DNA from: Fistulifera solaris
Taxonomy: Eukaryota
Direction: 5' to 3'
DNA length: 64,000 bases
Assembly (NCBI GenBank): GCA_030295235.1
Contig: AP026132.1
Location: 992,001 to 1,056,000, forward strand
Position 1 is the stretch's first letter; each line of letters begins with the position of its first letter. Below are positions 5,244 through 50,295 of this stretch, one piece after another. The translations under genes and the position numbers were made by a program. Under the pieces are notes generated by a model that saw only the letters and a program-made list of their open reading frames with translations, was not told the DNA's origin and ran no database searches.

Positions 5244-5559
5244 TGTAGATAGCTCAGAACTGATTTGAATTGTCAATCAGTAGACTTTTCTTGTCGGAAG
5301 GGTTGATGATGTTTGTTGAAGAAGTGCGTCCGAAAAGGTGCGCAAATATTTATTTTCGTTTTTTGTCCTCCATTTTTATTTTTTGGTATCGCCGTTTCTA
5401 TACTATGGTTATAGTTTACAGTGTAGTCCGTGCATTTCCCGACTGCATTTTAGTCGCTCCTTTTTCAGGTCTAATGTGCTTTACCAGGTAATGCCATCGT
5501 TGCTTTTTCTGACATGGCACCTGGTGACAAGGAACGACAATTGACATCAAAATGACATC

Positions 5560-7878
5560 AAAATGTAAAAAGAAAGAACAAAGCAACGCTTCGAAAGTCT
5601 ACGCGTGTTTCACGTAGCGCTCGTAGGGAAATTTATCGACAGAGGGGCAACCCGGATATTGTGTAATTTTGATGACACCATTTCCCAGGTATTTTGTGCA
5701 TTGATGCCATCATCGCTTTCCCGGACATTCGTATGGTGTGCCCAGGAACCATTATCGACACCAAAGCGACTGCAATACGTAAAAAGCGTGAAAGATGCAA
5801 CGCTTCGAAAGTCTACGCGTGTTTCACGTAGCGCTCGTAGGGAAATTTATCGACAGAGGGGCAACCCGGATATTGTGTAATTTTGATGACACCATTTCTC
5901 AGGTATTTTGTGCATTGATGCCATCATCGCTTTCACGGACATTCGTATGGTGTGCCAAGGATCAGTTACCAACAGCATATTGACTGCAATACGTAAAAAG
6001 CGTGAAAGATGCAACGCTTCGAAAGTCTACGCGTGTTTCACGTAGCGCTCGTAGGGAAATTTATCGACAGAGGGGCAACCCGGATATTGCGTAATTTTGA
6101 TGACACCATTTCCCAGGTCTCTTGTGCATTGATGCCATCATCGCTTTCACGGGCATTCTTATTGTGTGCTGTGTGCCAAGGGACAATTATCGACATCAAA
6201 ATGATACCAGTATCAAAACGTAAAAAGAAAGAACAAAGCAACGCTTCGAAAGTCTACGCGTGTTTCACGTAGCGCTCGTAGGGAAATTTATCGACAGAGG
6301 GGCAACCCGGATATTGCGTAATTTTGATGACACCATTTCCCAGGTCTCTTGTGCATCAATGCCAACATCGCTTTCACGGGCATTCTTATTGTGTGCTGTG
6401 TGCCAAGGGACAATTATCGACATCAAAATGATACCAGTATCAAAACGTAAAAAGAAAGAACAAAGCAACGCTTCGAAAGCCTACGCGTGTTTCACGTAGC
6501 GCCCGTAGGGAAATTTATCGACAGAGGGGCAACCCGGATATTGCGTAATTTTGATGACACCATTTCCCAGGTCTCTTGTGCATCAATGCCAACATCGCTT
6601 TCACGGGCATTCTTATTGTGTGCTGTGTGCCAAGGGACAATTATCGACATCAAAATGATACCAGTATCAAAACGTAAAAAGAAAGAACAAAGCAACGCTT
6701 CGAAAGCCTACGCGTGTTTCACGTAGCGCTCGTAGGGAAATTTATCGACAGAGGGGCAACCCGGATATTGTGTAATTTTGATGACACCATTTCCCAGGTA
6801 TTTTGTGCATTGATGCCATCATCGCTTTCACGGACATTCGTATGGTGTGCCCAGGATCAGTTACCAACAGCATATTGACTGCAATACGTAAAAAGCGTGA
6901 AAGATGCAACGCTTCGAAAGTCTACGCGTGTTTCACGTAGCGCTCGTAGGGAAATTTATCGACAGAGGGGCAACCCGGATATTGCGTAATTTTGATGACA
7001 CCATTTCCCAGGTCTCTTGTGCATTGATGCCATCATCGCTTTCACGGGCATTCTTATTGTGTGCTGTGTGCCAAGGGACAATTATCGACATCAAAATGAT
7101 ACCAGTATCAAAACGTAAAAAGAAAGAACAAAGCAACGCTTCGAAAGTCTACGCGTGTTTCACGTAGCGCTCGTAGGGAAATTTATCGACAGAGGGGCAA
7201 CCCGGATATTGCGTAATTTTGATGACACCATTTCCCAGGTCTCTTGTGCATCAATGCCATCATCGCTTTCACGGGCATTCTTATTGTGTGCTGTGTGCCA
7301 AGGGACAATTATCGACATCAAAATGATACCAGTATCAAAACGTAAAAAGAAAAGAACAAAGCAACGTTTCGAAAGTCTACGCGTGTTTCACGTAGCGCTC
7401 GTAGGGAAATTTATCGACAGAGGGGCAACCCGGATATTGCGTAATTTTGATGACACCATTTCCCAGGTCTCTTGTGCATTGATGCCATCATCGCTTTCAC
7501 GGGCATTCTTATTGTGTGCTGTGTGCCAAGGGACAATTATCGACATCAAAATGATACCAGTATCAAAACGTAAAAAGAAAGAACAAAGCAACGCTTCGAA
7601 AGCCTACGCGTGTTTCACGTAGCGCCCGTAGGGAAATTTATCGACAGAGGGGCAACCCGGATATTGCGTAATTTTGATGACACCATTTCCCAGGTCTCTT
7701 GTGCATTGATGCCATCATCGCTTTCACGGACATTCGTATAGTGTGCCCAGGAACCATTATCGACATCAAAGCGACTGTAATACGTAAAGAGAAAGAACAA
7801 AACAACGCTTCGAAAGTCTACGCGTGTTTCACGTAGCGCTCGTAGGGAAATTTATCGACAGAGGGGCAACCCGGATAT
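5560..7878. repeat. Tandem array 1: 10 full monomers of 214/227/228 bp plus partial ends
   Basis: Anchor GCAACGCTTCGAAAG (or a single-base variant) at 5583, 5797, 6011, 6238, 6465, 6692, 6906, 7133, 7361, 7588 and 7802. Confidence 0.97.
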
Positions 7879-7995
7879 TATTTATTTCCATCGCCCATCG
7901 CCGCAATATTTTTCGCTCCGCTGCTTTTTGATGAGGCTGCAAAGAAAACCACTCATTCATTTACTAATTGTTGAACTCCCCTCGCCAACAAAAGT

Positions 7996-9959: not shown

Positions 9960-12242
9960 ATGGTCTCTCTTCCCAAAATAAAAATGAGAAAACAAGCGAG
10001 TGAAGTGTCCCGCAAACGATCCGGTCTCTTTCGCGTGCGCAAGACAGCGAGCACGTCGGAAGAACGGTCCACCTTACTCGACAACACTAAAGAAACGTCC
10101 TACAGGAAACCATCGACACCCGCCACGACGGGTTCGCTCTCTCCGATGCATTTCAACGAGTCGATCACACAAGTACGCCCCTTCCCGATGTCCAAGTCGC
10201 CAAACACCGTTCCGATTATAGTCGCGGTGACAACAGTACGGTCATTTCGGATTTGACCAACCCGAAACTCGGGCAACAGGCGCCGAATGAAGAATTACCA
10301 TCGATGACACGCATCCGCACACAGCAATCCAGTCAGTCGCAGACTTCCACCATTCCCGAACCGGCCATCGTCACGCCTACCACGACAACAACACCGATCA
10401 ACAAAGAACCGATCGAGACGAAGGAAGAACCGATTCCGGATGAAGATGGTTATTTGATGCGTGTCTATCATATGATGGAACAGTCTTGTATGGGATGGAC
10501 GACCAGCGACCGCAAAGTTAATTTTGCCCCCGAATGGGGCGTCCCTCCCTCGAAAGATGACGATGATTCGACGCATCCCGGTGACTATAAACCCCGCAGC
10601 ACAGCGGACGACGCGAGTCAGGCATCGAGTCGAGCCGAAGTCTTGTTGCGCAAGGCACGAAGTGCGCGCGAAGAAAAGAAAAAAGGCCGATCAAGAAAAA
10701 CGATACAAGGACATTGTCATGTCCTTGAAAGACGGTAACCTGCCGACCGTCGATGAAACCAAAGTGCGTGTGCCGCAAATGGACGGGACGTATCAGTTTT
10801 TGCACACGGCGGATTTGGTGGGAGGAGACGAGGAAGCGACGACCGTCAGCAAGTACAGTACGAACGAACTGTTGGGGGCGCAGCACATGCCGGAAGACAA
10901 TTCGAACATGTTTCGGAACAGCCGGGAATGGCTGACTATGTTGGGTCTGAAAGAGAATCATTCGGATGACACGACCACAATTCAAACAGAACCTGCCGAT
11001 ACGGACAAGAAGGTCCGTCTTGCTACTACGGAAACGGTCAAGCCGCAATGGAAGGAGGTATATGACCCGGAATCGAGACGTGTTTATTATTATCATCGCG
11101 TTACCCGGGAGACGACTTGGAAACGTCCTCCCGAAGATCAGTTAGTGAAGAAAGTGAGTCGAGCTGGAACCCTCACGGAACGAGACATTCGAGAAATCAT
11201 CGACCGGACATTGCCGCATACCTACGACGATGCGGTCTTGAGCCAGCGGGATCGTATCGCCAAAATGCTGACGGCCATGGCTCCGCCGAACGCCATTACC
11301 GTGGAAGAATTGCTCATGGAGTTTGCCGGTCGCGAGGATGACTTGATTCACCAACTCCGGAGTGTGAACGAATCGAAGCCGTTCGATGAACCTGTACAGC
11401 GTCCCGAAAAGGAAAACAACGAAGACGTGCAGGGGGCTGTCCCGATCCAAGGCCATTCCAGGTCGGCCAAGACGGTCTCGAGTGCGTACAGTCTCAGCAC
11501 GAAAAGTCGCTTATCGGAAATGACGCAGCAAATTCGAAATACCCGGAACCGTGGCGCCTTTGAAAAAATATACGAGGACGCTAGTAATCACGGAGGGATG
11601 CCCAAAGTACCCAGCACGATTCCTGTCCCTCGCCGTCGTGATCTCAAGGTGGAAGAGTATTCCAGTGATCGTCGAAAAGCCGAGACTTTTGAAAGCCGTC
11701 GTGCTGTGCCACGCCGAATGCTCCATCAACAGAGGAAACTAGAGGGGACATATTCGAGCGACGACGAAGATGTGTATCTAGAGAAAGACATGGAATCCGT
11801 CGACATGAACGACTCTGCTTCGGAATACAGTACCAGTTTATACGACACTCGACGAAAGGACTTGGAGGATGCTATTGCGAACCGTGATTGGGATCTAGCG
11901 GCAGCTCTTTCTGAAGGGATGCGATCTATACCGTCACAGAACATACCTCGCAGAAATACACGGACATCGAATGAACAGAGTGAGCTAGATCGACTCATTT
12001 CCCAAAGGGATTGGGATGGAGTTTCTGACTATATCGCCCGATTAAGGGCAACAGGAAAGACGGAGAGTGAGAACGCGAAGTCCAACGGTGTGCATGGACT
12101 TCAGCGAAAAGGTAAATCGTCCGACTATGCTTACGGCTATCAAAGCAAAAACGTTCCACATTCCAACTCTGATGACGAAGGATCTTCCAATGTCCGCTCA
12201 GAGAATCGATCTCGCTACGGGAAGAATCAATTCGCTTGTTGA
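9960..12242 (+). CDS. WW-domain protein, largely disordered; frameshifts near 10170 and 10680
   Basis: WW motif WKEVYDPESRRVYYYHRVTRETTWKRP. Two C-terminal RDWD helical repeats. Three overlapping ORFs join into one. Confidence 0.75.
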
Positions 12243-13794: not shown

Positions 13795-14668
13795 CTTTGT
13801 TGTTCGGTTCATGACTACTGTACAATCCAGTCTTGGCTGGCGTAAACCAACACTCCCTTTCATAGTCAAAATACAGGGTGTCGATCCTTCGGATTTTCGA
13901 CGTGAAAATAAAAGAAAACTCTTTACAAATAGTTCAGGATAATCATTGTTGCGACTTTTTTACCCGTAATCACAATTATATTTGCAGTTGAATGACAATA
14001 AACGGATGCGAGAGACGCGAAACGGAACCCTTTGTTGTTCGGTTCATGACTACTGTACAATCCAGTCTTGGCTGGCGTAAACCAACACTCCCTTTCATAG
14101 TCAAAAATACAGGGTGTCGATCCTTCGGATTTTCGACGTGAATATAGAAGAAAACTCTTAACAAATAGTTCAGGATAATCATTGTTGCGACTTTTTTACC
14201 CGTAATCACAATTATATTTGCAGTTGAATGACAATAAACGGATGCGAGAGACGCGAAACGGAACCCTTTGTTGTTCGGTTCATGACTACTGTACAATCCA
14301 GTCTTGGCTGGCGTAAACCAACACTTCGTTTCATAGTCAAAAATACAGGGTGTCGATCCTTCGGTTTTCGACGTGAAAATAAAAAGCAAACTCTTTACAA
14401 ATAGTCCAGGATAACCCTTTGTTTGCGCCTTTTTTACCCGCAATCGCAATTATATTTCTAGTTGGATGACAATAAACGGATGCGAGAGACGCGAAACGGA
14501 ACCCTTTGTTGTTCGGTTCATGACTACTGTACAATCCAGTCTTGGCTGGCGTAAACCACACTCCGTTTCATAGTAAAAATACAGGGTGTCGATCCTTCGG
14601 ATTTTCGACGTGAAAATAAAAAGAACTCTTAACAAATAGTTCAGGATAATCATTGTTGCGACTTTTCT
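13795..14668. repeat. Tandem array 2: about 3.7 monomers of 235-238 bp
   Basis: Anchor TTCATGACTAC at 13808, 14043, 14279 and 14517. Confidence 0.96.
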
Positions 14669-14789
14669 ACTCGCAAGGCGTTTTTTCGTGCGCCGTGTTT
14701 TCAAGTCCCCCGAAAATCTGGTTGTAAAGATTTCACCTCCCAGAAAATCTGGGAGACCGCTGTAATAAGTAATAACGGCTTGGTCCGTG

Positions 14790-15035: not shown

Positions 15036-15321
15036 AAAACAGTTTTCCTGTATCTGTGTCAGACGGAAATTCTGTATATTTATGTCATGAAGTCTCGAAG
15101 ATATAGGAAAAGTTCTCCCAGTCTGGACGTGTGGTGTGGAGTATTCACGTACCAGGGTACAGTCCCCAGAAAAATGTGGAAGTGTGGGAAAACGGGTGTG
15201 ACCATAGGTAGTCTATGTAACGTTTTTATTTACTTTATTATTAGAAAGGACTGAATACCGATGCGCATGAGTGAGAAACGAGCTAGGATGGTCATGATTC
15301 ATTCAATTGATAGTTGGTGTT

Positions 15322-15450
15322 TTCACCTGTCCAGAAAATCAGGGCGTATGGAGTTTTCATTTGTCCAGAAAATCTGGGCGAGTTGTGTGTTCACTTAACC
15401 AGAAAATCTTAAGAATTGGGGTTCTTAAGTTCCCAGAAAATCTGGATGTG
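15322..15450. repeat. Four copies of a CCAGAAAATC(TGG) motif at an exact 34-bp period
   Basis: Motif starts at 15331, 15365, 15399 and 15433; further copies at 14709, 14740 and about 15166. Confidence 0.8.
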
Positions 15451-15643
15451 TGGTTTCCGCTCCGTTGCCGTCGTTTTCTGTTTCGCGTTTATACTGACGC
15501 ACGGACGGCAAACGACCGATCGAATTGTGACGACAAAGAATGAATAACAGATCGAGCCATCAGCTTCCTTGTACTTCTACCTTGTAGCTACGGTATAATA
15601 CTTTTACTAGACCCGGTGATCGAAGGAGAGAGGTGGGAATGAG

Positions 15644-18600
15644 ATGAATATGATTGCCTCAGCCGGCGGAAGTATGCATCGAAATAGCGTCAAGCGGCCG
15701 CGATGGCTCATTGGGCTCTTTCTGACTCCGTATTCGTTTCTTTCGGCATTTCACTTATCCAGCAGCTTGACATCGTCATTGAATTACCGAACATGTCACA
15801 CCCATTTGTATTCTTCTCCTTTGATTAATACAGAAGACGATGAAAAGGCAATAAACGCGGTGGACAGTTCCAGACGGAGAGCTCTTGAATCCATCGCTTT
15901 CACATCGGTAGCCACACTGTTTGGGGCATCGGAAGCTCGTGCTGGTGTTCCGGAGTTAGATAGTGCCACTGGGCAGCTGTTTTCGCCAAAATCTGAAATG
16001 TTTTCTGGAGGTAGTACGGCGGCGCGGGGCATTCCTGTCACACAGCGTGAACGATTAAAGGCTGGTCAATCTCTGCAATCCATCTACGAAACACGGTTCG
16101 TCGCCTACTTGAGTCGCTTTCTTCTTAATTTTGATCCAGCTACGAGGGCTTGGTGGCTACAGCAAGGATTGGCGGACTCTTGGGAGCCGCTAGACAGTAA
16201 AAAGAATCCAGAAATGGTCTTGGCGGAGTTTGCCAATTCGGTTGAGGTCGGCCTGGCCGACTACTTTAGCGGCCCATTCGGATCGTATAGTTCCGTTCGA
16301 GCCGCAACGGCAGGCATCTCTGCTGCACAATCAGCTCGATCAATGAAATCAGCTCAATCAGAAACAGATAATCTCGTGGCTCGTATCTTCGGTGGAAAAC
16401 GAAAAGCTACTGTGGACAGTGCAGCAGAAAAGGAAAACATCCAGTTAGCCAAACAAGGAGTTCTCAACTTGTGTGCACTATTGAAGGCGCGCTACACATC
16501 AGTCGCGGCGAAACGGCAGCTAGCCATTTTATTTTCGTTCGTTTCGGACCCACGCTTGCAACCAGTCAATGAAATTTGTAGTCTCCTGGGAGAGGCCGAC
16601 AATGCATCCATTACTAAGTTGGAATTGATATTTCCTGAACAAAGATCCGTGCGAATGAGTAGCCGAGTAGGTGGTGGTTATTCTCTGGGTGAATTCCCCG
16701 AAATCGTTGTGAGCGATCCGCCCCCACTTGGTGACCTGTACTGCGCTGCACAAGTTGTCCCTCGCATGCGTTCCACGACACGAGTTCTAAGAATTCGAGT
16801 TGTTGACGGAGGTGAAGGATATGTTACGGCGCCGCAAGTAACTTTGCAGCAATCACGAGGCTTATTAGATCGTCCCTGTCAGGCCGTTGCAATTCTTGAT
16901 ATTCAAGGTAGCGTTGAGTCAATCATCGTCTTGGATCCGGGGAGCGGATACGGAGGACCGACCGGCGAAATACCACCCGAGGTAAAGATCGAAGCACCGC
17001 CAAAACGCGTGAATAAGAAGGTACAAAAAGTTCGTACGGCGACGGCTATCGCCGATTTAGAGTATGAAGTTGTAGGATTGGAACTCATCGACGGAGGGAA
17101 TGGCTATTCTGTGTCGGAACCACCAAGCATTCAAATTGTCCCTCCAAAGCAGGATCCGGACTGGTATATTCAAGTTCAAGATACCGTTGATCAGCGTTAC
17201 CTACCGATGGGAGACTCTGAAATAAAGCTGAAGGCCCGAGTTGCGGCCATGAAAACAGCAGCAGGCGTCTCTGTTCTTGTTTCTGACAACCCACCCAATT
17301 TTGCGACGATTGACAGCGGATTAATACAACTTCTCCAGCGAGAGCCTCTTGAACTCCTCCCGTCATCCTTTCGACCCCGTCTCGTAATGGACGAGAAAAC
17401 TGGGTTGCGCTCCTACACAATCCCAGCTTTAAAAGGCATTCCAATGTCGTCGTCTGATTATCCTTACTTCTATCGCGAATTCGATCCAGTCTTTGGTGGT
17501 GTCGGTCGCGTCCCTGTGACAAAGGGCGCTTCTGCTTTAAAGGTAGATGAATACGCTCGACTAGCGCTAAGTGGTGCGGTGTGTACAGTGTTGGTTAGAA
17601 CGGGGTTGGGCCCTCTTGAACTCATCAAAACGAAGTTACAATTGTTAAATGACGATGAGCTTTTCGAGTTTGCCAGAAAACAAAAAACCAAGGATGAATA
17701 TGTCAACGTGAAACAAGAAGAAGAAGCGACTAGTTATTCGACTCTTGCTTCAAAGAATGAGTCTATCTCATCAGCATCGTTCGGCGCTGTTGCTATGAAA
17801 GAGAAGACTTCTGTCGAAGTGCCGATAGTTGAAGAGTCGGAAAAAGCTCCCGCTAACATAAAGGTTGGGACTATGGATCTGATAAGAAGTACAATTGAAC
17901 TTCGCGGATGGACGTCGCTTTTTCAGAGTGCTGACATCACATTCTTAGCATCTCTGGTATTTGGGTCTTTTGGGTTTGGTGCTACTGAACTATTTCGAAG
18001 ATCTTTGGCAATTGCATTCTTGCGTAATGGTAGCTCGGACACGGCATCAGAAATAGCTCTCCTGATAGCAGCCGCTGGCGCAACAACCGTAACAGCTGCA
18101 GCCGCGGCTCCTTTTGAAGTATTGCGCGTTCGAAGCATGGGATATGTCACGCCCAAAGTTTGGACCGATGTTCTCAAAGATTTTCTCGTAAGTATCACGG
18201 AGTATGAAACATTGTAATTGCTGGCTACAGTGCGAGGCACTCACCGACTAATCGTGAAACAGGAAGATGAAGGGAAGAGCAAAAACGAGAATGACACATT
18301 CGAATTGAAGAATTTGACACCACAAGAGTTGTTACCTTTATGGTCTGGATTTGCCCCAACCGTCAGCCGCGAGCTGCCTTTCGCAGTTGTTAAATTTCTG
18401 GTCTTTGACATCATTTCAGTTTCCATTGTGAATCTACTTAACAGTAATTCAGAAGGCGCATTCCCGATACAAGTCGGCGTTGGCCCGGTTGGTCTTGCGG
18501 TCTCGGCTGCAGCTGGGGCAATCGCCGGCGTCGCAGGGGCTGTTGTATCTCACCCAGCTGATCTGATTTTGACGAAAACAAACTCTGTTCGAAAGAAGAA

Positions 18601-18852
18601 AGGTGAGGGAAAAGCGGACTGGCGAGAAGTAGTGAGAAACCTTACCAGTCAGGAAGGAGGCTTTGCAAACTTGTTTGTGGGTTTGGGCGCCCGTGCAACG
18701 TTCTTCTTCTTGGTGATAGGTCTGCAATTCTTCCTCTACGATTACGTGAAGAACCTTTTCCAAGTTGGACAAGACGACTTAAGTCTTGTTTTAGATGTCT
18801 TTACGCAGTGCGAGAGGGACTCGTTGAAGCTAGTGAATACAGATCACTGTGA
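15644..18852 (+). CDS. Mitochondrial carrier family (phosphate-carrier-like) protein with a long N-terminal extension; predicted plastid/thylakoid-targeted; intron 18188-18262; frameshift near 18800
   Basis: Carrier signatures PLELIKTKLQ, PFEVLRVR and HPADLILTK. Signal peptide ending LSA-F. Twin-arginine SRRRAL...EARA. Four GGxGY-type repeats. Confidence 0.85.
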
Positions 18853-19100
18853 ATGTACTCCTCCGAAAGCTACAGTTGAATGTCAATGTGAATTGGATTT
18901 GTGCAAACACTTGTGCGCCAAAGCCAGAGGAGACTAACGTAAAAGGCAAGACTGACAGTATAATACATCATGATAGGACTAACTCATGCAATTATAGGTG
19001 TGTTATTATGTCCAAGAACATATGAAAGACTGATAGAACAATTTGAGAACGATATTCCGTTGACAGTAGTCAACGAAAGGTGATAGATAGAAAGATCGCA

Positions 19101-20301
19101 TTAGAATTCTGGTTTTCCTCCCTCTCCGTAAACTGTTGATATATCTCCGAATGCTGAAGCCTCTTCGTTTGCTGGTGTTACATCATTCTTCGCAGACTCT
19201 TCGTCATTCACTGACTCCTGATCCTTGGCGGATTCTTCGTCGTCGTCTTCTTGCGGTTGTTCTTGTTCTTCGACTGCTGACTCCTCGTCCTCGTCCTCAT
19301 TCTCTTCTTCTTGTTGTTTCTTCTGAAGCATAGCACGGGGCATATCACTCGGCATGGGTGTGGCGACACTGGGCGAGTATCCATCCAGTGAAAATCCGTA
19401 ACTTTCCATGGAACTGACGCTGGCAGCATCCCCCATATTGCGACGACCTTGTCCATTCATGGCGTTCGCCATACCCGACTGATAGTACAAGGAAAGTGAA
19501 GTGGCAATATCATCGGTAATGACCGAGTCAGGGTAATGATCCGCGGCATCCACGACGGCGGGAAAGTCTTGTCGCGGCGATGAGTTGGGAGTCGTTCGTA
19601 CACCATCGTCATCAAAGGTAGTATCGGATCCAGTTCGACCGGCTTTGCTATTCAAATACGCTTGACGGTTGCGGCGATCGTATCTCCAAGCCCAGATCAC
19701 CGCCAGAATCAAGAATAGGAATGCCGCACAAGCCACGCCCACGGCAATTACAATCACCATTTCGAGATCGTCCGTACTTTCTTGACCGCTGCTTCTTCCC
19801 ACATCATTCGGATTGAGATACGACTGAAGAGCTACGAGCGATGCTCCCAAACCATCGGGATCCGACTGTTGCAATTCGGATTGCAAGGTCAACATGGCCG
19901 TTCTGTTTTGCAGCGTTCTTCGTTGTATCTCAAGTATATCCGCGACCGGGACGGGGAGCGATTGCTCTTCCGAAAACGAAAAGGCAGCATGTCCTCCCAT
20001 ACGTGCCGTGTACAAGAATCCTTGTGCGAGGTTGCGATCTCCGCGGAGTGCCGGTGTTACTTCTTCGACTTCCTGCAAGGCGCGGACTTGTCGATCGTAT
20101 AATATGACGCGGTTGAAGACAGCGTATTCTTCCCTCCGCCGTGTATCCCCATTCGACAAGCTGGTCTCGAAAGACATCACTCATCCATTCCGAGACAATA
20201 TCGGTGACTTCGAAAATAGAAATGTCCAAGTTGACCGTTAAAGCAAACTGCACATCGAAAGGGATGAGATCGACCAAATCGACAACGGGTTGTTTTGACA
20301 T
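19101..20301 (-). CDS. Single-pass membrane protein with an acidic C-terminal tail; frameshift near 20176; start uncertain
   Basis: TM segment VIVIAVGVACAAFLFLILAVIWAW followed by RYDRRNR; Ser-rich and acidic tail. Confidence 0.65.
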
Positions 20302-37607: not shown

Positions 37608-40459
37608 ATGAGAGATTACAATAAAATTCAATTTCGAAGCCCATCCAGTCGCATACCGACTGGAGGCAAAGCTGTCACCAGCACCACCACTGCCACTCCG
37701 AGCCCGAGTAAAATCCCTGCTTTCCGGAGTAGCGTGTCAGCGGAGAAGAAACGACTCATCAGCAAGCCTGCGGAACAGGAAAGTCCCAAAAATGAAAACG
37801 AACCGCCCCGAGAACCTTCGAACGGATTCTATCGGAGCGTGGGCTCGGCGCATTCGAATACAGGGTCCACCAGCACCGTGACAACGGCGGCTACAACCAC
37901 AGCCAGTCCGGGTACGCGTTCTCCATCGCCGCCGCCAGACAATGGTTACTTGAGCTCCTATTTGCCGGACACAATTCACGAAGAACGGGACATGAACGAC
38001 TCGGCTAGTAACAGGGAGGTCGAGTCGAAAGGTTCTTCATCGACGAAAACACTGGCCAGCCATCGAGAATCACCAGAGGTCACTATCTCTCGCTTAAGGA
38101 AAACCATCGAGGAACTTTCCGAAAAAGAAAACGCGTCAAAGGAAGCTCTCGCCAAGTCGGATGCAGTCATTTTGGAGCTGCGAAGCAGTGTTCGTCAATT
38201 GAAGCGACAGGTGGAAAAAACAAATGGCGACGCGATGTCGCAAGGATCCGATTTAGGACACCAGCGAGGCATGCTGGCTGATTTTCAAGTGGAATTGGAT
38301 AAGGCGCACGCCCAACTGTTGACTGCGGATATGGTCCGCAAGGAACTGGAAGACACGTTGGAAGCGGAGCAGTATACGTGGGAACTACGAGTACAGGACC
38401 AAGAGCGAACCATTCAACAATTGCAACAAGAATGTTCCGTACTTATGGAAGACCTGGAGCAGACTCGAGCACAATGGAAAGAAGCCGAAGAGGGCTGGTC
38501 AAAAGAAGTGCAGGAGCTTCAAAGCAGGCTAGAAAATATGCAGCGGGAACTTGCTTCCAGGCAACCAAGCGCACGAATCACTACAGCAGCTCATGAAACT
38601 GAAATAGCAAAACTCAATGATAGAATCGCAATGATGGAGGCCGAAAGAAACGATCTGCAGGGGTGTTTAGACGAAGCTTTAAAAGAACTGGAGGCAGTAG
38701 ATGCTGAGTTACAGGGTGAAGGAGGAGTTTCGCAGCTGCGTCACGAAAACGATATGTTGCAGGAAGAGCTGCGGAAAGTCATGGAAGGACAGATTGGCCC
38801 TATTGTCGAGCCACTACAGCACATGTATAGGTGGCTCCTCGAGCGCAACGAAGTTGAACAGGGGACTCATCACAGCAATCCGAATGATGCACGGCAACTC
38901 GTAGAAGCCATCCAGACTCATCTAGAGCAGCATTACTCATCGAATACCGGCCGAAATGGACAGGATCTGAATGAGACGAAGAAACAGGTCGCGGCCTTGG
39001 AATCTGAGCTGTCTGTTTATCGCGGAGACTTGAAAGCTCGAGAAGAAAGTAGTGCTGAACTTAGAGCTAGTTTGAAGGAAGCCGTTTCTCTTCTCAAACC
39101 TTTGCAGGACGCCGTGGCGAAGGCGGAGCAAGAGAAGGCGAAGATGCAGGAAAAAGTAGATCTTTTCAAAGACGATTCGCAACAAAGCAAAGATCAAGCC
39201 GTTAAGCTTAAAGTGCTTCTTAACGAAAAAGAAGATGAAATCACTAGGCTGCAGGAACAGCTAGAGTCACTTGAACTACAGCTCTCTCGAACCAAAGTCG
39301 CAGTTGCCTCGCAGTTCGCTTCACCGCGTAATGCTTTTGAGACTTCTCCAAAGAATTCTCAAGGTCGGTCTCGCGAAGAACTCCGAGCGAAGCGAGAGGA
39401 ACTTTGAAAGACACCAAAAGTCGTTTTTCTAGTTTACAAAAGCGTCAAGTAGAAAGTGGTTTGCAGTTGATGTCCTCAGGGTCGAAAAATGAGGAATTGC
39501 AGGATGAGCTACAATCGAAGAAGGCCCAAATTGTTGAGCTAGACAGCGAATGCAAAACTTTACGGGAAGAGCTCGCGCGGAAAGACGAAAAAATAGTTAC
39601 TTTAGAGAAAGAATTGTCGCAAGCACTTGACGAGGCGCAAGCAGTAAATCAAGCCATTGAGCAAGCTGAAAAACATCGACACGATCTTCAAAACAAGCTT
39701 GCTGCGACACAAGAGCAGCTGCATGTCAAGAAGGAAGTTGAAAAGGCACTCAACAGAAGTCTCAAGGAAGCACTTAAGCTATTAAAACCTTTGCAGATGC
39801 ATCTTGAAGAAGCCGAAGCGGAAAAACGTGAGTTGGCCAAAGAGATGCGCCTAATGCGGCAACGATTCGGTGATGTGGGCTCTCTCAGATCGCCTGGATC
39901 ATCTAGCGCTTCGAACGCGTTTCAGGACTCTGGAAAAGTACGAGAACTACAGGAAACAGTGAAGTTCCTTGAGCTGGAAAATTCACAACTACATAACGCT
40001 CTGGAAGACATGTCCCAAATGAATGGGTCTCAGGTCAGCGGTGTGTCCGGTGCTCACCGTGGTGTCAATCTAGCTAGTCAGCAGAAGAGAGACCAAAGGC
40101 TACACGAACAATTGGTGGAAATGAAAAGCCGCTACGATGTCACGAAAGACCAGCTTGACAACGCCATGGCCGAGAATCAGGCTTTGATCGAGACCTTAAA
40201 GAAACGGGATAGAGGAGAACATGCTTTGAAGGAGGAAATTCAACAATTGCGAGATCAACTAAGAAAGACTGGATATGAGTTGGAAAATGCGAAGTTTATA
40301 GCGTCGTCGGCACTCGTGAAAGTTGACGAATTAACGAAAGGCAGTTCCGTGCAAACCAATCGCGATTATCTACTAAAGATGAAAGCAAGGGAAGTTGAAA
40401 TGGAGATGTCGAAAGCACATAAACAGCGGTTTTCATCGCATTACAGCGGTTCAGTTTGA
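37608..40459 (+). CDS. Long coiled-coil protein; frameshift near 39400
   Basis: E/Q/K/L-rich heptads. The internal motif SLKEA..LLKPLQ occurs twice. Confidence 0.75.
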
Positions 40460-48007: not shown

Positions 48008-50295
48008 TCCTATGACAGAACCGTGACACAATCCATCCCTAGACTATGTCTTCAACAGTTTTGTCATTATACGTCATTATATTTACGTCGAAGAGCCTTG
48101 CGAAACGTTGTCTGCCTTATTTTACTATGGACCCAAAGTGTTGGTTTACGGAGACCACGACTGCACTTCAGTCATGAATCCATATTTTTTTTGAGCGACA
48201 TTGCTGCCTATAAATCGTTCGATCGCCCAGTTCCTTGAGCTTTAATCGTCATTGTTGCAATGAAACAGTCTTCAACACTTTTGTCATTATACGTCATTAT
48301 ATTTACGTCGAAGAGCCTTGCGAAAATGTTGTCTGCCTTATTTTACTATGGACCCAAAGTGTTGGTTTACGGAGACCACGACTGCACTTCAGTCATGAAT
48401 CCATATTTTTTAGCGACATTGCTGCCTATAAATCGTTCGATCGCCCAGTTCCTTGAGCTTTAATCGTCATTGTTGCAATGAAACAGTCTTCAACACTTTT
48501 GTCATTATACGTCATTATATTTACGCCGAAGAGCCTTGCGAATAGTGATTGGACTCGAGTCAATATTTTGACCCGGGTTAACCGAGTTGAACCAAGTTTG
48601 ACCCGGCTCGCTTTGATTTTTTCATGAACTCGGTTGAACCGAGTTGGCCTTGGAATGTACATTCAGTACGTTCGTCATGTCGCAGCGTCGTATACGTGAT
48701 GTCGCTGCGACACTGACTGTAGCGCTTATAGTATTAATGTATTCTCATGACGTAACCGAGCCATAACTCGACCCGACCCGGTTGGCAGAAAACCCGGCTC
48801 CGATTTGGTTGGTCCTCCCGAGTCGAGTCGAGTTCAATCACTACTTGCGAAACGTTGTCTGCCTTATTTTACTATGGACCAAAAGTGTTGGTCCTATGAC
48901 AGAACCGTGACACAATCCGTCCCTCTAAACGAACCTTGCCAAACGTTGTCTGCCTTAGTTTACTATGGACCCAAAGTGTTGGTTTACGGAGACCACGACT
49001 GCACTTCAGTCATGAATCCATATTTTTTTTGAGCGACATTGCTGCCAATAAATCGTTCGATCGCCCAGTTCCTTGAGCTTTAATCGTCATTGTTGCAATG
49101 AAACAGTCTTCAACACTTTTGTCATTATACGTCATTATATTTACGTCGAAGAGCCTTGCGAAAATGTTGTCTGCCTTATTTTACTATGGATCCAAAGTGT
49201 TGGTTTACGGAGACCACGACTGCACTTCAGTCATGAATCCATATTTTTTAGCGACATTGCTGCCTATAAATCGTTCGATCGCCCAGTTCCTTGAGCTTTA
49301 ATCGTCATTGTTGCAATGAAACAGTCTTCAACAGTTTTGTCATTATTTTTACGTCGAAGAGCCTTGCGAAAACGTTGTCTGCCTTATTTTACTATGGACC
49401 CAAAGTGTTGGTTTACGGAGACCACGACTGCACTTCAGTCATGAATCCATATTTTTTAGCGACATTGCTGCCTATAAATCGTCCGATCGCCAGTTCCTTG
49501 AGCTTTAATCGTCATTGTTGCAATGAAACAGTCTTCAACACTTTTGTCATTATACGTCATTATATTTACGTCGAAGAGCCTTGCGAAACGTTGTCTGCCT
49601 TATTTTACTATGGACCCAAAGTGTTGGTTTACGGAGACCACGACTGCACTTCAGTCATGAATCCATATTTTTTTGCGCGACATTGCTGCCTATAAATCGT
49701 TCGATCGCCAGTTCCTTGAGCTTTAATCGTCATTGTTGCAATGAAACAGTCTTCAACAATTTTGTCATTATACGTCATTATATTTACGTCGAAGAGCCTT
49801 GCGAAAATGTTGTCTGCCTTATTTTACTATGGATCCAAAGTGTTGGTTTACGGAGACCACGACTGCACTTCAGTCATGAATCCATATTTTTTTGCGCGAC
49901 ATTGCTGCCTATAAATCGTTCGATCGCCCAGTTCCTTGAGCTTTAATCGTCATTGTTGCAATGAAACAGTCTTCAACACTTTTGTCATTATACGCCATTA
50001 TATTTACGTCGAAGAGCCTTGCGAAACGTTGTCTGCCTTATTTTACTATCGACCCAAAGTGTTGGTTTACGCAGACCACGACTGCACTTCAGTCATGAAT
50101 CCATATTTTTTTGAGCGACATTGCTGCCTTTAAATCGTTCGTTCATCAAAACACTTGAGCACCATTTATTTGTCGTTGCAGCATTGAAATAGTCAAGCAT
50201 TATTTTTATTTCAGATCAGGATAGTTTAGACTACGTCGAAGAGCTGTGCGAAACGTTGTCTTCCGTACCAGGTACTGGTATTTACTATGGACCAT
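48008..50295. repeat. Tandem array 3: about 8-9 monomers of ~208-221 bp, interrupted by a MITE and a rearrangement
   Basis: Anchor GA(C/T)CCAAAGTG or a variant at 48130, 48351, 48877, 48968, 49189, 49397, 49613, 49832 and 50051; degenerate last unit to about 50293. Confidence 0.96.
48543..48843. mobile_element. Non-autonomous hAT-type MITE, 301 bp
   Basis: 19-bp TIRs TAGTGATTGGACTCGAGTC / GAGTCGAGTTCAATCACTA (2 mismatches). Perfect 8-bp TSD CTTGCGAA at 48535-48542 and 48844-48851. Subterminal ACCCGG/AACCGAG repeats. Confidence 0.92.

Follow-up and report, generated by a model that had tools for sequence, protein, structure and literature searches.

The phosphate carriers SLC25A3 and Mir1 and the plant PHT3 proteins, which belong to the mitochondrial carrier superfamily, are about 300 amino acids (aa) long, lie in the mitochondrial inner membrane and carry no extra domain. 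The calcium-binding Mg-ATP/phosphate and aspartate/glutamate carriers of the same superfamily possess an N-terminal domain that controls transport. In diatoms, the plastid-targeted carrier MCFc (Phatr3_J46742), a mitochondrial-family protein of about 40 kDa, is placed at the envelope and affects photosynthesis. In green plants, a mitochondrial-family ADP/ATP carrier, TAAC, has been reported in thylakoid membranes, and diatoms are without a homologue of it, both according to the accessible part of a review. Outside the carriers, the giant virion proteins of T4-like cyanophages (S-MbCM6 YP_007001806, T4-GC_108; PHROGs 701, 19630, 460 and 2885) contain many copies of a repeat unit, with up to 20 matched stretches, and reside in the phage particle. 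Here we describe a gene of the diatom Fistulifera solaris that shares features with these systems; it occupies positions 15644-18852 on the + strand of a 64,000-nucleotide stretch of contig AP026132.1 (assembly GCA_030295235.1, positions 992,001 to 1,056,000), hereafter the window.

The product of this gene, of about 1044 aa, joins a carrier domain to an extra N-terminal domain of about 530 residues that contains four G-x-G-Y repeats and is preceded by a presequence with a predicted twin-arginine (Tat) signal. Its nearest named subfamily is that of SLC25A3, Mir1 and PHT3, a likeness that comes from automated annotation and from the Arabidopsis match of a paralogue. As in the calcium-binding carriers, the additional domain is N-terminal and on the same membrane side; however, theirs consists of EF-hand calcium sensors, whereas the diatom extension has neither an EF-hand nor any other Pfam match (a Pfam scan of the whole protein finds Mito_carr only). 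TAAC carries nucleotides and has neither a large lumenal domain nor a Tat signal, and MCFc has no extension and belongs to another subfamily. The cyanophage proteins share with the diatom protein the unit ...G.V.SI.V.D.G.GY...P.V.I..P and a predicted fold, although the diatom protein has four such units and carries them in a membrane transporter. This gene represents a family whose architecture is new within the mitochondrial carrier family (MCF); its members are present in databases and censuses, and their unusual features are undescribed as far as our literature search reaches. On balance, we favour the view that the protein is a plastid-targeted carrier whose large extension would be carried into the thylakoid lumen by the Tat pathway.

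Carrier domain, conservation and presequence

The first part of the carrier domain, with helices 1-3 (residues 632-848; 17537-18187), contains the motifs PLELIKTK and PFEVLRVR and closes exon 1, and exon 2 (18263-18852) supplies helices 4-6, with the motifs PADLILTK and YDYVK, and a conserved C-terminus. The Pfam family Mito_carr (PF00153) matches one stretch in exon 1 (30.9 bits, 2.3e-7) and two in exon 2 (62.1 bits, 4.3e-17), against a curated cut-off of 22.3, which places the protein in the carrier family; the relatives P0214, P0223 and P0243 show three stretches each. In the homeologue of this gene (P0004), hydropathy analysis locates six hydrophobic helices at about 638-660, 757-781, 802-820, 884-902, 922-945 and 980-1009. 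With three stretches and six helices, the carrier repeats named in the original prediction are present. Two signature motifs of the homeologue, PLELIKTK and PLEVLRVR, are canonical, and in the third, PADLILTK, the first basic position is taken by L. A poorly conserved insertion of about 75 aa lies in the first matrix-side loop, and long insertions occur in the first two such loops. Some family members carry the automatically assigned source name 'SLC25 phosphate transporter 3', and one BLAST match links a paralogue to AT2G17270 of Arabidopsis, which we take to be a mitochondrial phosphate transporter; on these grounds the carrier appears to be phosphate-carrier-like, and we infer that phosphate is its substrate.

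A word-indexed protein search returned 197 proteins at E <= 0.001, and PF00153 was present in 115 of the best 120 listed, which were 43-100% identical. Those of the 120 with a source name all come from diatoms (Fistulifera, Mayamaea, Amphora, Epithemia, Cylindrotheca, Pseudo-nitzschia and Nitzschia), and an MMETSP transcriptome protein of 1262 aa is among the listed fusion homologues. When the repeat region alone was searched with phmmer against 1.84 billion representatives, there were 488 matches at E <= 0.001, 100 at E <= 1e-10 and 33 at E <= 1e-30; 150 matches were listed, and 28 of these were scanned against Pfam. Mito_carr was found in 16 of the 28, ten of which are only 28-39% identical to the query, while one protein had a multicopper-oxidase domain and 11 had no family. 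Six of these 11 were read; they contain the N-domain motifs and end before or within the carrier domain, and are thus models of the same family that were cut short. Among the distant members in the alignment, three or more further sequence types can be told apart, and a profile built from eight of them returned 10 proteins. No stand-alone form of the extension or of the carrier was found in a search for short proteins, which was dominated by fragments of the same family and did not bring up the nearest canonical carrier either. Judging from the aligned proteins, more than 100 diatom proteins share the carrier-extension fusion, which is also conserved in algal relatives at a greater distance; the fusion that the original prediction had proposed is real and old.

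The presequence of the protein has three parts. An endoplasmic-reticulum-type signal peptide (residues 1-35; 15644-15748) was predicted by eye from the cleavage-type motif FLSA/F in the translation (A35/F36, the slash marking the cleavage position, with an aromatic residue at +1); in the homeologue, a hydrophobic segment is located at residues 22-40 by hydropathy, and this reading agrees with the signal peptide of the original prediction, with its LSA-F site. It is followed by a Ser/Thr-rich, transit-peptide-like stretch (residues 36-75; 15749-15868), which varies in length and sequence among the homologues and is not conserved in the family alignment. The third part is the twin-arginine signal (residues 76-100; 15869-15943), which reads SRRRAL-ESIAFTSVATLFGAS-EARA, with SRRRAL at residues 76-81 followed by an uncharged, hydrophobic h-region that closes with ARA at residue 100.

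This signal was counted in the 98 N-complete members of the family, that is, those with at least 105 residues ahead of the YLSRFLLNFD-type motif. An arginine pair (RR) followed by an uncharged stretch of 12 residues, 55-100 aa upstream of the YLSRFLLNFD motif, is present in 97 of the 98, the exception being P0082, which keeps the RR and has a glutamate in the stretch. Among the 97 RR-positive members, A-x-A follows 15-43 residues past the RR in 87, and serine precedes the RR in 68 and threonine in 12, together 80 of the 97. The conserved mature sequence begins directly past the A-x-A, and the distant family types keep the twin-arginine signal too. This is the pattern expected of a working Tat-type thylakoid-transfer signal, which we predict the conserved RR signal to be, as had been proposed for SRRRAL...ARA from this single gene.

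The paralogue mentioned above, Phatr3_J11866 of Phaeodactylum tricornutum, is listed in the accessible part of the data of Liu et al. 2022 (PMC9546453) as 'Mitochondrial carrier protein', with a sequence of 1057 characters. The part of it that was compared, upstream of the carrier, has the same layout, with VTA/FAP, SRR plus a hydrophobic stretch, YLSRFLLSFD and G-S-G-Y (PMC9546453). It differs in belonging to a second branch of the family, with PLPWE..PVNKRSG past the signal, as in P0183 and P0243; several diatoms possess both branches. In the same partial data (PMC9546453), HECTAR calls it chloroplast, and its best Arabidopsis match is AT2G17270, with 31.7% identity at 9e-35. Its reciprocal-best matches, in the 60 accessible rows of 186, include pennate and centric diatoms, often with two per species; among them are two from Fistulifera at 57%, and Guillardia, Heterosigma, Chattonella, brown algae and Isochrysis at 33-38%, the latter known from the match rows alone (PMC9546453).

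A full-text literature search for the gene identifier returned two preprints only. In the accessible part of the first (bioRxiv 10.1101/2024.12.16.628690), Phatr3_J11866 is listed among the PF00153 (MCF) genes as a plastid-targeted phosphate transporter, is co-expressed with photosynthesis and Calvin-cycle genes, and a protein given as 'Phatr3_J11886', possibly Phatr3_J11866, is enriched in plastid fractions. In that of the second (bioRxiv 10.1101/2025.09.15.676419), it is among the transporter genes of the high-light-depleted set in a genome-wide CRISPR screen. By way of this paralogue, a photosynthetic role in high light is suggested for the family. Neither the extension nor the Tat signal nor the repeats were found to be described in the accessible carrier, twin-arginine, thylakoid and diatom literature, of which the bioRxiv supplements could hold more.

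The G-x-G-Y repeats and their relatives

Past the twin-arginine signal, the extension consists of a conserved mature N-terminus (GVPELD...) with a helical domain (residues 101-325; 15944-16618), the four G-x-G-Y beta repeats (residues 326-506; 16619-17161) and a conserved junction region (residues 507-631; 17162-17536) whose motifs DPDW, LLPS..RP and DP.FGG.G..PV are invariant columns of the alignment. In AlphaFold models built with family alignments, the whole extension reached a predicted local distance difference test score (pLDDT) of 79.8 and a predicted template modelling score (pTM) of 0.76, with helices at model residues 50-219 for the helical domain and mixed strands and helices for the junction region (pLDDT mostly >80); the repeats alone were modelled as all-beta, with pLDDT 89.8 and pTM 0.83. 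The original prediction had placed four repeats at about 16610-17150, and four units are indeed found there, the first shorter than the three full ones. Their G-x-G-Y motifs begin at residues 343, 390, 433 and 485 (nucleotides 16670, 16811, 16940 and 17096) and lie within 146 residues, and none of 20000 shuffles of the protein reached four such motifs (shuffle mean 0.11). Across 109 aligned sequences, their glycines and tyrosines are either invariant or conserved to at least 90%.

A likeness of these repeats to structural proteins of T4-like cyanophages, named in the original prediction, proved to be real in four comparisons. First, the PHROGs matches to residues 369-508 (1.2e-7, 5.3e-7 and 4.3e-5) are to profiles of virion structural, baseplate wedge and head-closure proteins. 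Second, a tblastn search with residues 321-520 against 50,697 phage records matched 98 records, every one of which belongs to a cyanophage when judged by its organism name (89 Synechococcus phage, 7 Cyanophage and 2 Prochlorococcus phage); the best match, with 37.7% identity over 122 aa (E 4e-8), sits in a 7022-aa virion structural protein of S-MbCM6, encoded directly past the baseplate wedge genes. Third, the diatom and phage repeats align in register over three consecutive units with 36-38% identity. Fourth, the repeat model matched 22 predicted viral structures in BFVD at E <= 1e-3 (best 2.5e-6), all of them tailed-phage proteins and many from cyanophages; the template modelling (TM) scores of these matches are low, at 0.28-0.40, as would be expected if the units are hinged differently. 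When representative proteins with several matched stretches were scanned, all 15 of 15 matched PHROGs structural families, the best match per protein being 3e-72 or better at the top of the range, and 1.4e-44 and 4.3e-42 in the two weakest proteins; these matches are driven by the repeats themselves, and a protein with a copper-oxidase domain matches too.

Relatives were also found in prokaryotes. A pattern scan of one genome per species gave 47 pattern matches, of which 23 were confirmed, at 18 loci, distributed over actinomycetes, spirochaetes, planctomycetes, verrucomicrobia, Chloroflexota, Bacteroidota, a betaproteobacterium and a Methanoperedenaceae archaeon. The actinomycete protein (L003 2413-6444, at least 1344 aa) combines the repeats with a twin-arginine-type signal at its N-terminus (TRRLLV type) and a multicopper-oxidase domain, and the same combination of G-x-G-Y repeats and multicopper-oxidase domain is seen in protein P0168. 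The archaeal protein, of at least 1391 aa, has an N-terminal signal or anchor, and its gene adjoins that of a methenyl-tetrahydromethanopterin (H4MPT) cyclohydrolase, a core methanogenesis-type gene. Against the diatom repeats, the BLAST bit scores of phage, archaeon and actinomycete are similar (58.9, 49.7 and 47.4).

Taken together, the G-x-G-Y module is a general part of proteins lying outside the cytoplasm, a character that agrees with a lumenal position in the diatom. The original prediction had assigned the domain a viral or bacterial origin. For the repeat module, homology to both phage and bacterial proteins was found; a viral origin, however, would need the module to be restricted to viruses, and since it occurs at 18 bacterial and archaeal loci, in cellular secreted and surface proteins as well, such an origin is not established.

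For the extension outside this module of about 180 aa, searches of limited reach (Pfam, Foldseek, VIA-align, patterns and ESM Atlas) returned no relatives beyond the family. The helical domain had no Pfam match and no usable ESM Atlas match outside the family, and its VIA-align matches were weak, with Z about 3. Foldseek with the whole extension found nothing in PDB at E <= 0.001, and two peptide patterns for prokaryotic relatives of the whole extension, a narrow test, yielded no confirmed locus. No solved structure of the G-x-G-Y module was found among the structure searches. Two candidates were set aside: the outer domain of T4-type tail sheath proteins, which appeared in a wide VIA-align search with Z 4.7-5.7 overall (Z 5.7 with a root-mean-square deviation (rmsd) of 2.9 over 80 aa, and Z 5.3 with rmsd 3.2 over 78 aa), is too weak a match to name the fold, and the phage baseplate-type clusters matched by the whole extension in ESM Atlas, at 0.88, fall under the 0.9 level and are leads only.

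Gene structure and surroundings in the window

In the open reading frame (ORF) reading of the window, the ATG at 15644 opens a frame of 857 codons. The coding parts are exon 1 (15644-18187), a 75-nucleotide phase 0 intron (18188-18262, GTAAGT...CAG), which the original prediction had left out, and exon 2 (18263-18852). The spliced junction reads ...VLKDFL/EDEGK... (here the slash marks the exon boundary) and is identical in the homeologue, the 94%-identical spliced model FisN_25Lh139 of F. solaris (1042 aa). The public (NCBI) model of the locus itself, P0003, is 857 aa long and 100% identical; covering 15644-18217, it enters the intron and stops inside it, and is thus without carrier helices 4-6. 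The extension and carrier helices 1-3 share one uninterrupted exon, and more than 100 proteins are built in this same order. The single gene of the original prediction therefore stands, and the locus is one nuclear gene of a raphid pennate diatom.

As assembled in the window, exon 2 stays open until a stop at 18935-18937, and the C-terminus of the family, ...LVLDVFYAVREGL..., sits one frame over, with its stop at 18850-18852; a C-terminus of the form ...LVLDVFYAVR.GL... is shared by every relative in the alignment. A contig of the public run X1 has one additional T after 18799 (depth 25.7 of 25.7), so that the run at 18797-18800 has three T in the window and four in X1, and the last 17 codons of the gene are shifted. 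Because this additional T and the family C-terminus agree, we conclude that the window carries a homopolymer slip and that the gene end of the original prediction, 18852, is right; X1 is possibly the sample behind the window assembly and is not independent of it. A second one-base difference from X1 is located at 19047 in the 3' region, where one base is left out. Many of the X1 contigs over 15400-19100 occur in two versions, one identical to the window and the other about 5-9% different, which is consistent with one organism carrying the locus as two homeologous copies. Three public runs yielded contigs at the locus that are DNA-like in behaviour, with the intron unspliced and both homeologues present, and are uninformative on transcripts.

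Several repeated sequences surround the gene. A 236-bp tandem array of 3.7 copies (93% matches) lies about 1 kb upstream, at 13795-14670, and a 34-bp unit is repeated 2.8 times at 15315-15408, about 240 bp ahead of the ATG. Satellite-like arrays are found at 5524-7879 (period 227 bp, 10.5 copies, 91% matches) and at 48048-50141 (period about 219 bp, 2.3 + 5.6 copies), the latter coinciding with the lowest G+C content of the window, 0.418. Downstream, a convergent ORF of 358 aa on the - strand (19101-20177) contains a single hydrophobic segment (IVIAVGVACAAFLFLILAVIWAW), and its C-terminal tail is very acidic. The skew of A over T is strong in the 2-kb bins 10001-12000 (0.216), which overlaps a 561-aa ORF at 10557-12242, and 38001-40000 (0.256).

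Predicted placement of the protein in the plastid

In the arrangement that we favour, the bipartite presequence would import the protein across the four plastid membranes, and the twin-arginine signal would then use the Tat pathway to move the folded extension of 530 aa across the thylakoid membrane. Cleavage of this signal would take place past the A-x-A, and the six carrier helices would remain in the thylakoid membrane. Since the N-terminus lies on the 'cytoplasmic' side of the carrier, that side would be turned towards the acidic lumen, and the matrix-type loops towards the stroma, an orientation to the proton gradient equal to that in mitochondria. If the carrier is phosphate-carrier-like, phosphate may be moved together with protons from the lumen to the stroma, at the cost of protons. 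The lumenal domain may be a sensor, a tether or a partner-binding part, and might regulate the carrier.

A more far-reaching form of this proposal, which we put forward only tentatively, is that the family consists of polytopic thylakoid transporters and makes up a new class among Tat substrates, in which the folded, phage-type lumenal domain crosses the membrane before the six helices insert, and gates a proton-coupled flux of phosphate (or metal) according to the state of the lumen. Such gating would explain the need for the Phaeodactylum paralogue in high light.

Several observations weigh against a lumenal extension on a thylakoid carrier. A cofactor is the usual reason for use of the Tat pathway, and the list of invariant columns from 109 sequences includes no conserved Cys or His cluster that would hint at one. 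The third signature motif has L where K or R is usual; phosphate carriers, too, are not known to have a basic residue there. The carrier is also divergent: the homeologue, as a single sequence, matched nothing in PDB at E <= 0.01, and the family profile reached 0.003 with carrier subunits. The public runs searched included no RNA run for the locus, and no localisation, import or transport experiment for any family member was found in the literature. The 2026 review of the Tat pathway, in its accessible part, distinguishes five substrate classes, none of which combines a cleaved signal at the N-terminus with a six-helix bundle behind it; the proposed route is thus without precedent. For the paralogue, ASAFind returned 'Other', as against the HECTAR call of chloroplast (PMC9546453, accessible part).

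It is possible, though we regard it as distinctly less probable, that the protein resides in the plastid inner envelope like most plastid carriers, with the RR being part of the transit sequence and the extension placed in the stroma or the intermembrane space. The known diatom plastid carriers such as MCFc are indeed placed at the envelope, the accessible part of the Tat review knows no class of many-helix substrates past a cleaved signal, and the predictors gave the paralogue only 'chloroplast' in the accessible data. However, this placement does not readily account for the pattern S/T-RR-x-[AFV]-L with an uncharged h-region and an A-x-A at a fixed distance, kept in 97/98 while the flanking transit stretch is unconserved, nor for a repeat module that otherwise lies outside the cytoplasm.

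It is rather improbable that the carrier domain no longer transports and is there to anchor in the membrane a structural or adhesive domain of the lumen, involved for example in thylakoid spacing or in holding a partner. The divergence of the carrier, with its weak PDB matches, altered third motif and long insertions in two matrix-side loops, would fit such a role, as would phage-type repeats, which are typical of structural proteins; on the other hand, the family's most conserved columns include those of the carrier helices and gate motifs, and only one of the three signature motifs departs from the canonical form. That the protein is simply a mitochondrial phosphate carrier of the ordinary kind whose presequence is unusually long, as the automated names of family members would have it, is very improbable given the N-terminal signal peptide with an aromatic residue past its cleavage-type site, an extension that is conserved and folded in the model and is no presequence, and, in the accessible reports, the chloroplast prediction for Phatr3_J11866 and the plastid enrichment of 'Phatr3_J11886'. 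That the fusion is an artefact of gene model or assembly, with the extension and the carrier being two separate genes, is hardly credible even with RNA support lacking at the locus and the public model itself wrong at the intron, as the junction lies inside a single open exon and the same order of parts recurs in more than 100 proteins from many assemblies, one transcriptome-derived protein among them, and is counted for Phatr3_J11866 on the part compared.

Diatoms account for a large share of ocean photosynthesis, and their thylakoid transporters are almost unknown. If a thylakoid carrier with a lumenal extension is confirmed, the family would constitute a route for solutes across the thylakoid membrane that is specific to algae with complex plastids. 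One of its members, in Phaeodactylum, already shows a fitness phenotype in high light. It also raises the questions of whether the Tat pathway can deliver a large folded domain ahead of a six-helix membrane bundle, and of how a repeat module of phage particles and microbial surfaces came to be joined to a eukaryotic organelle transporter.

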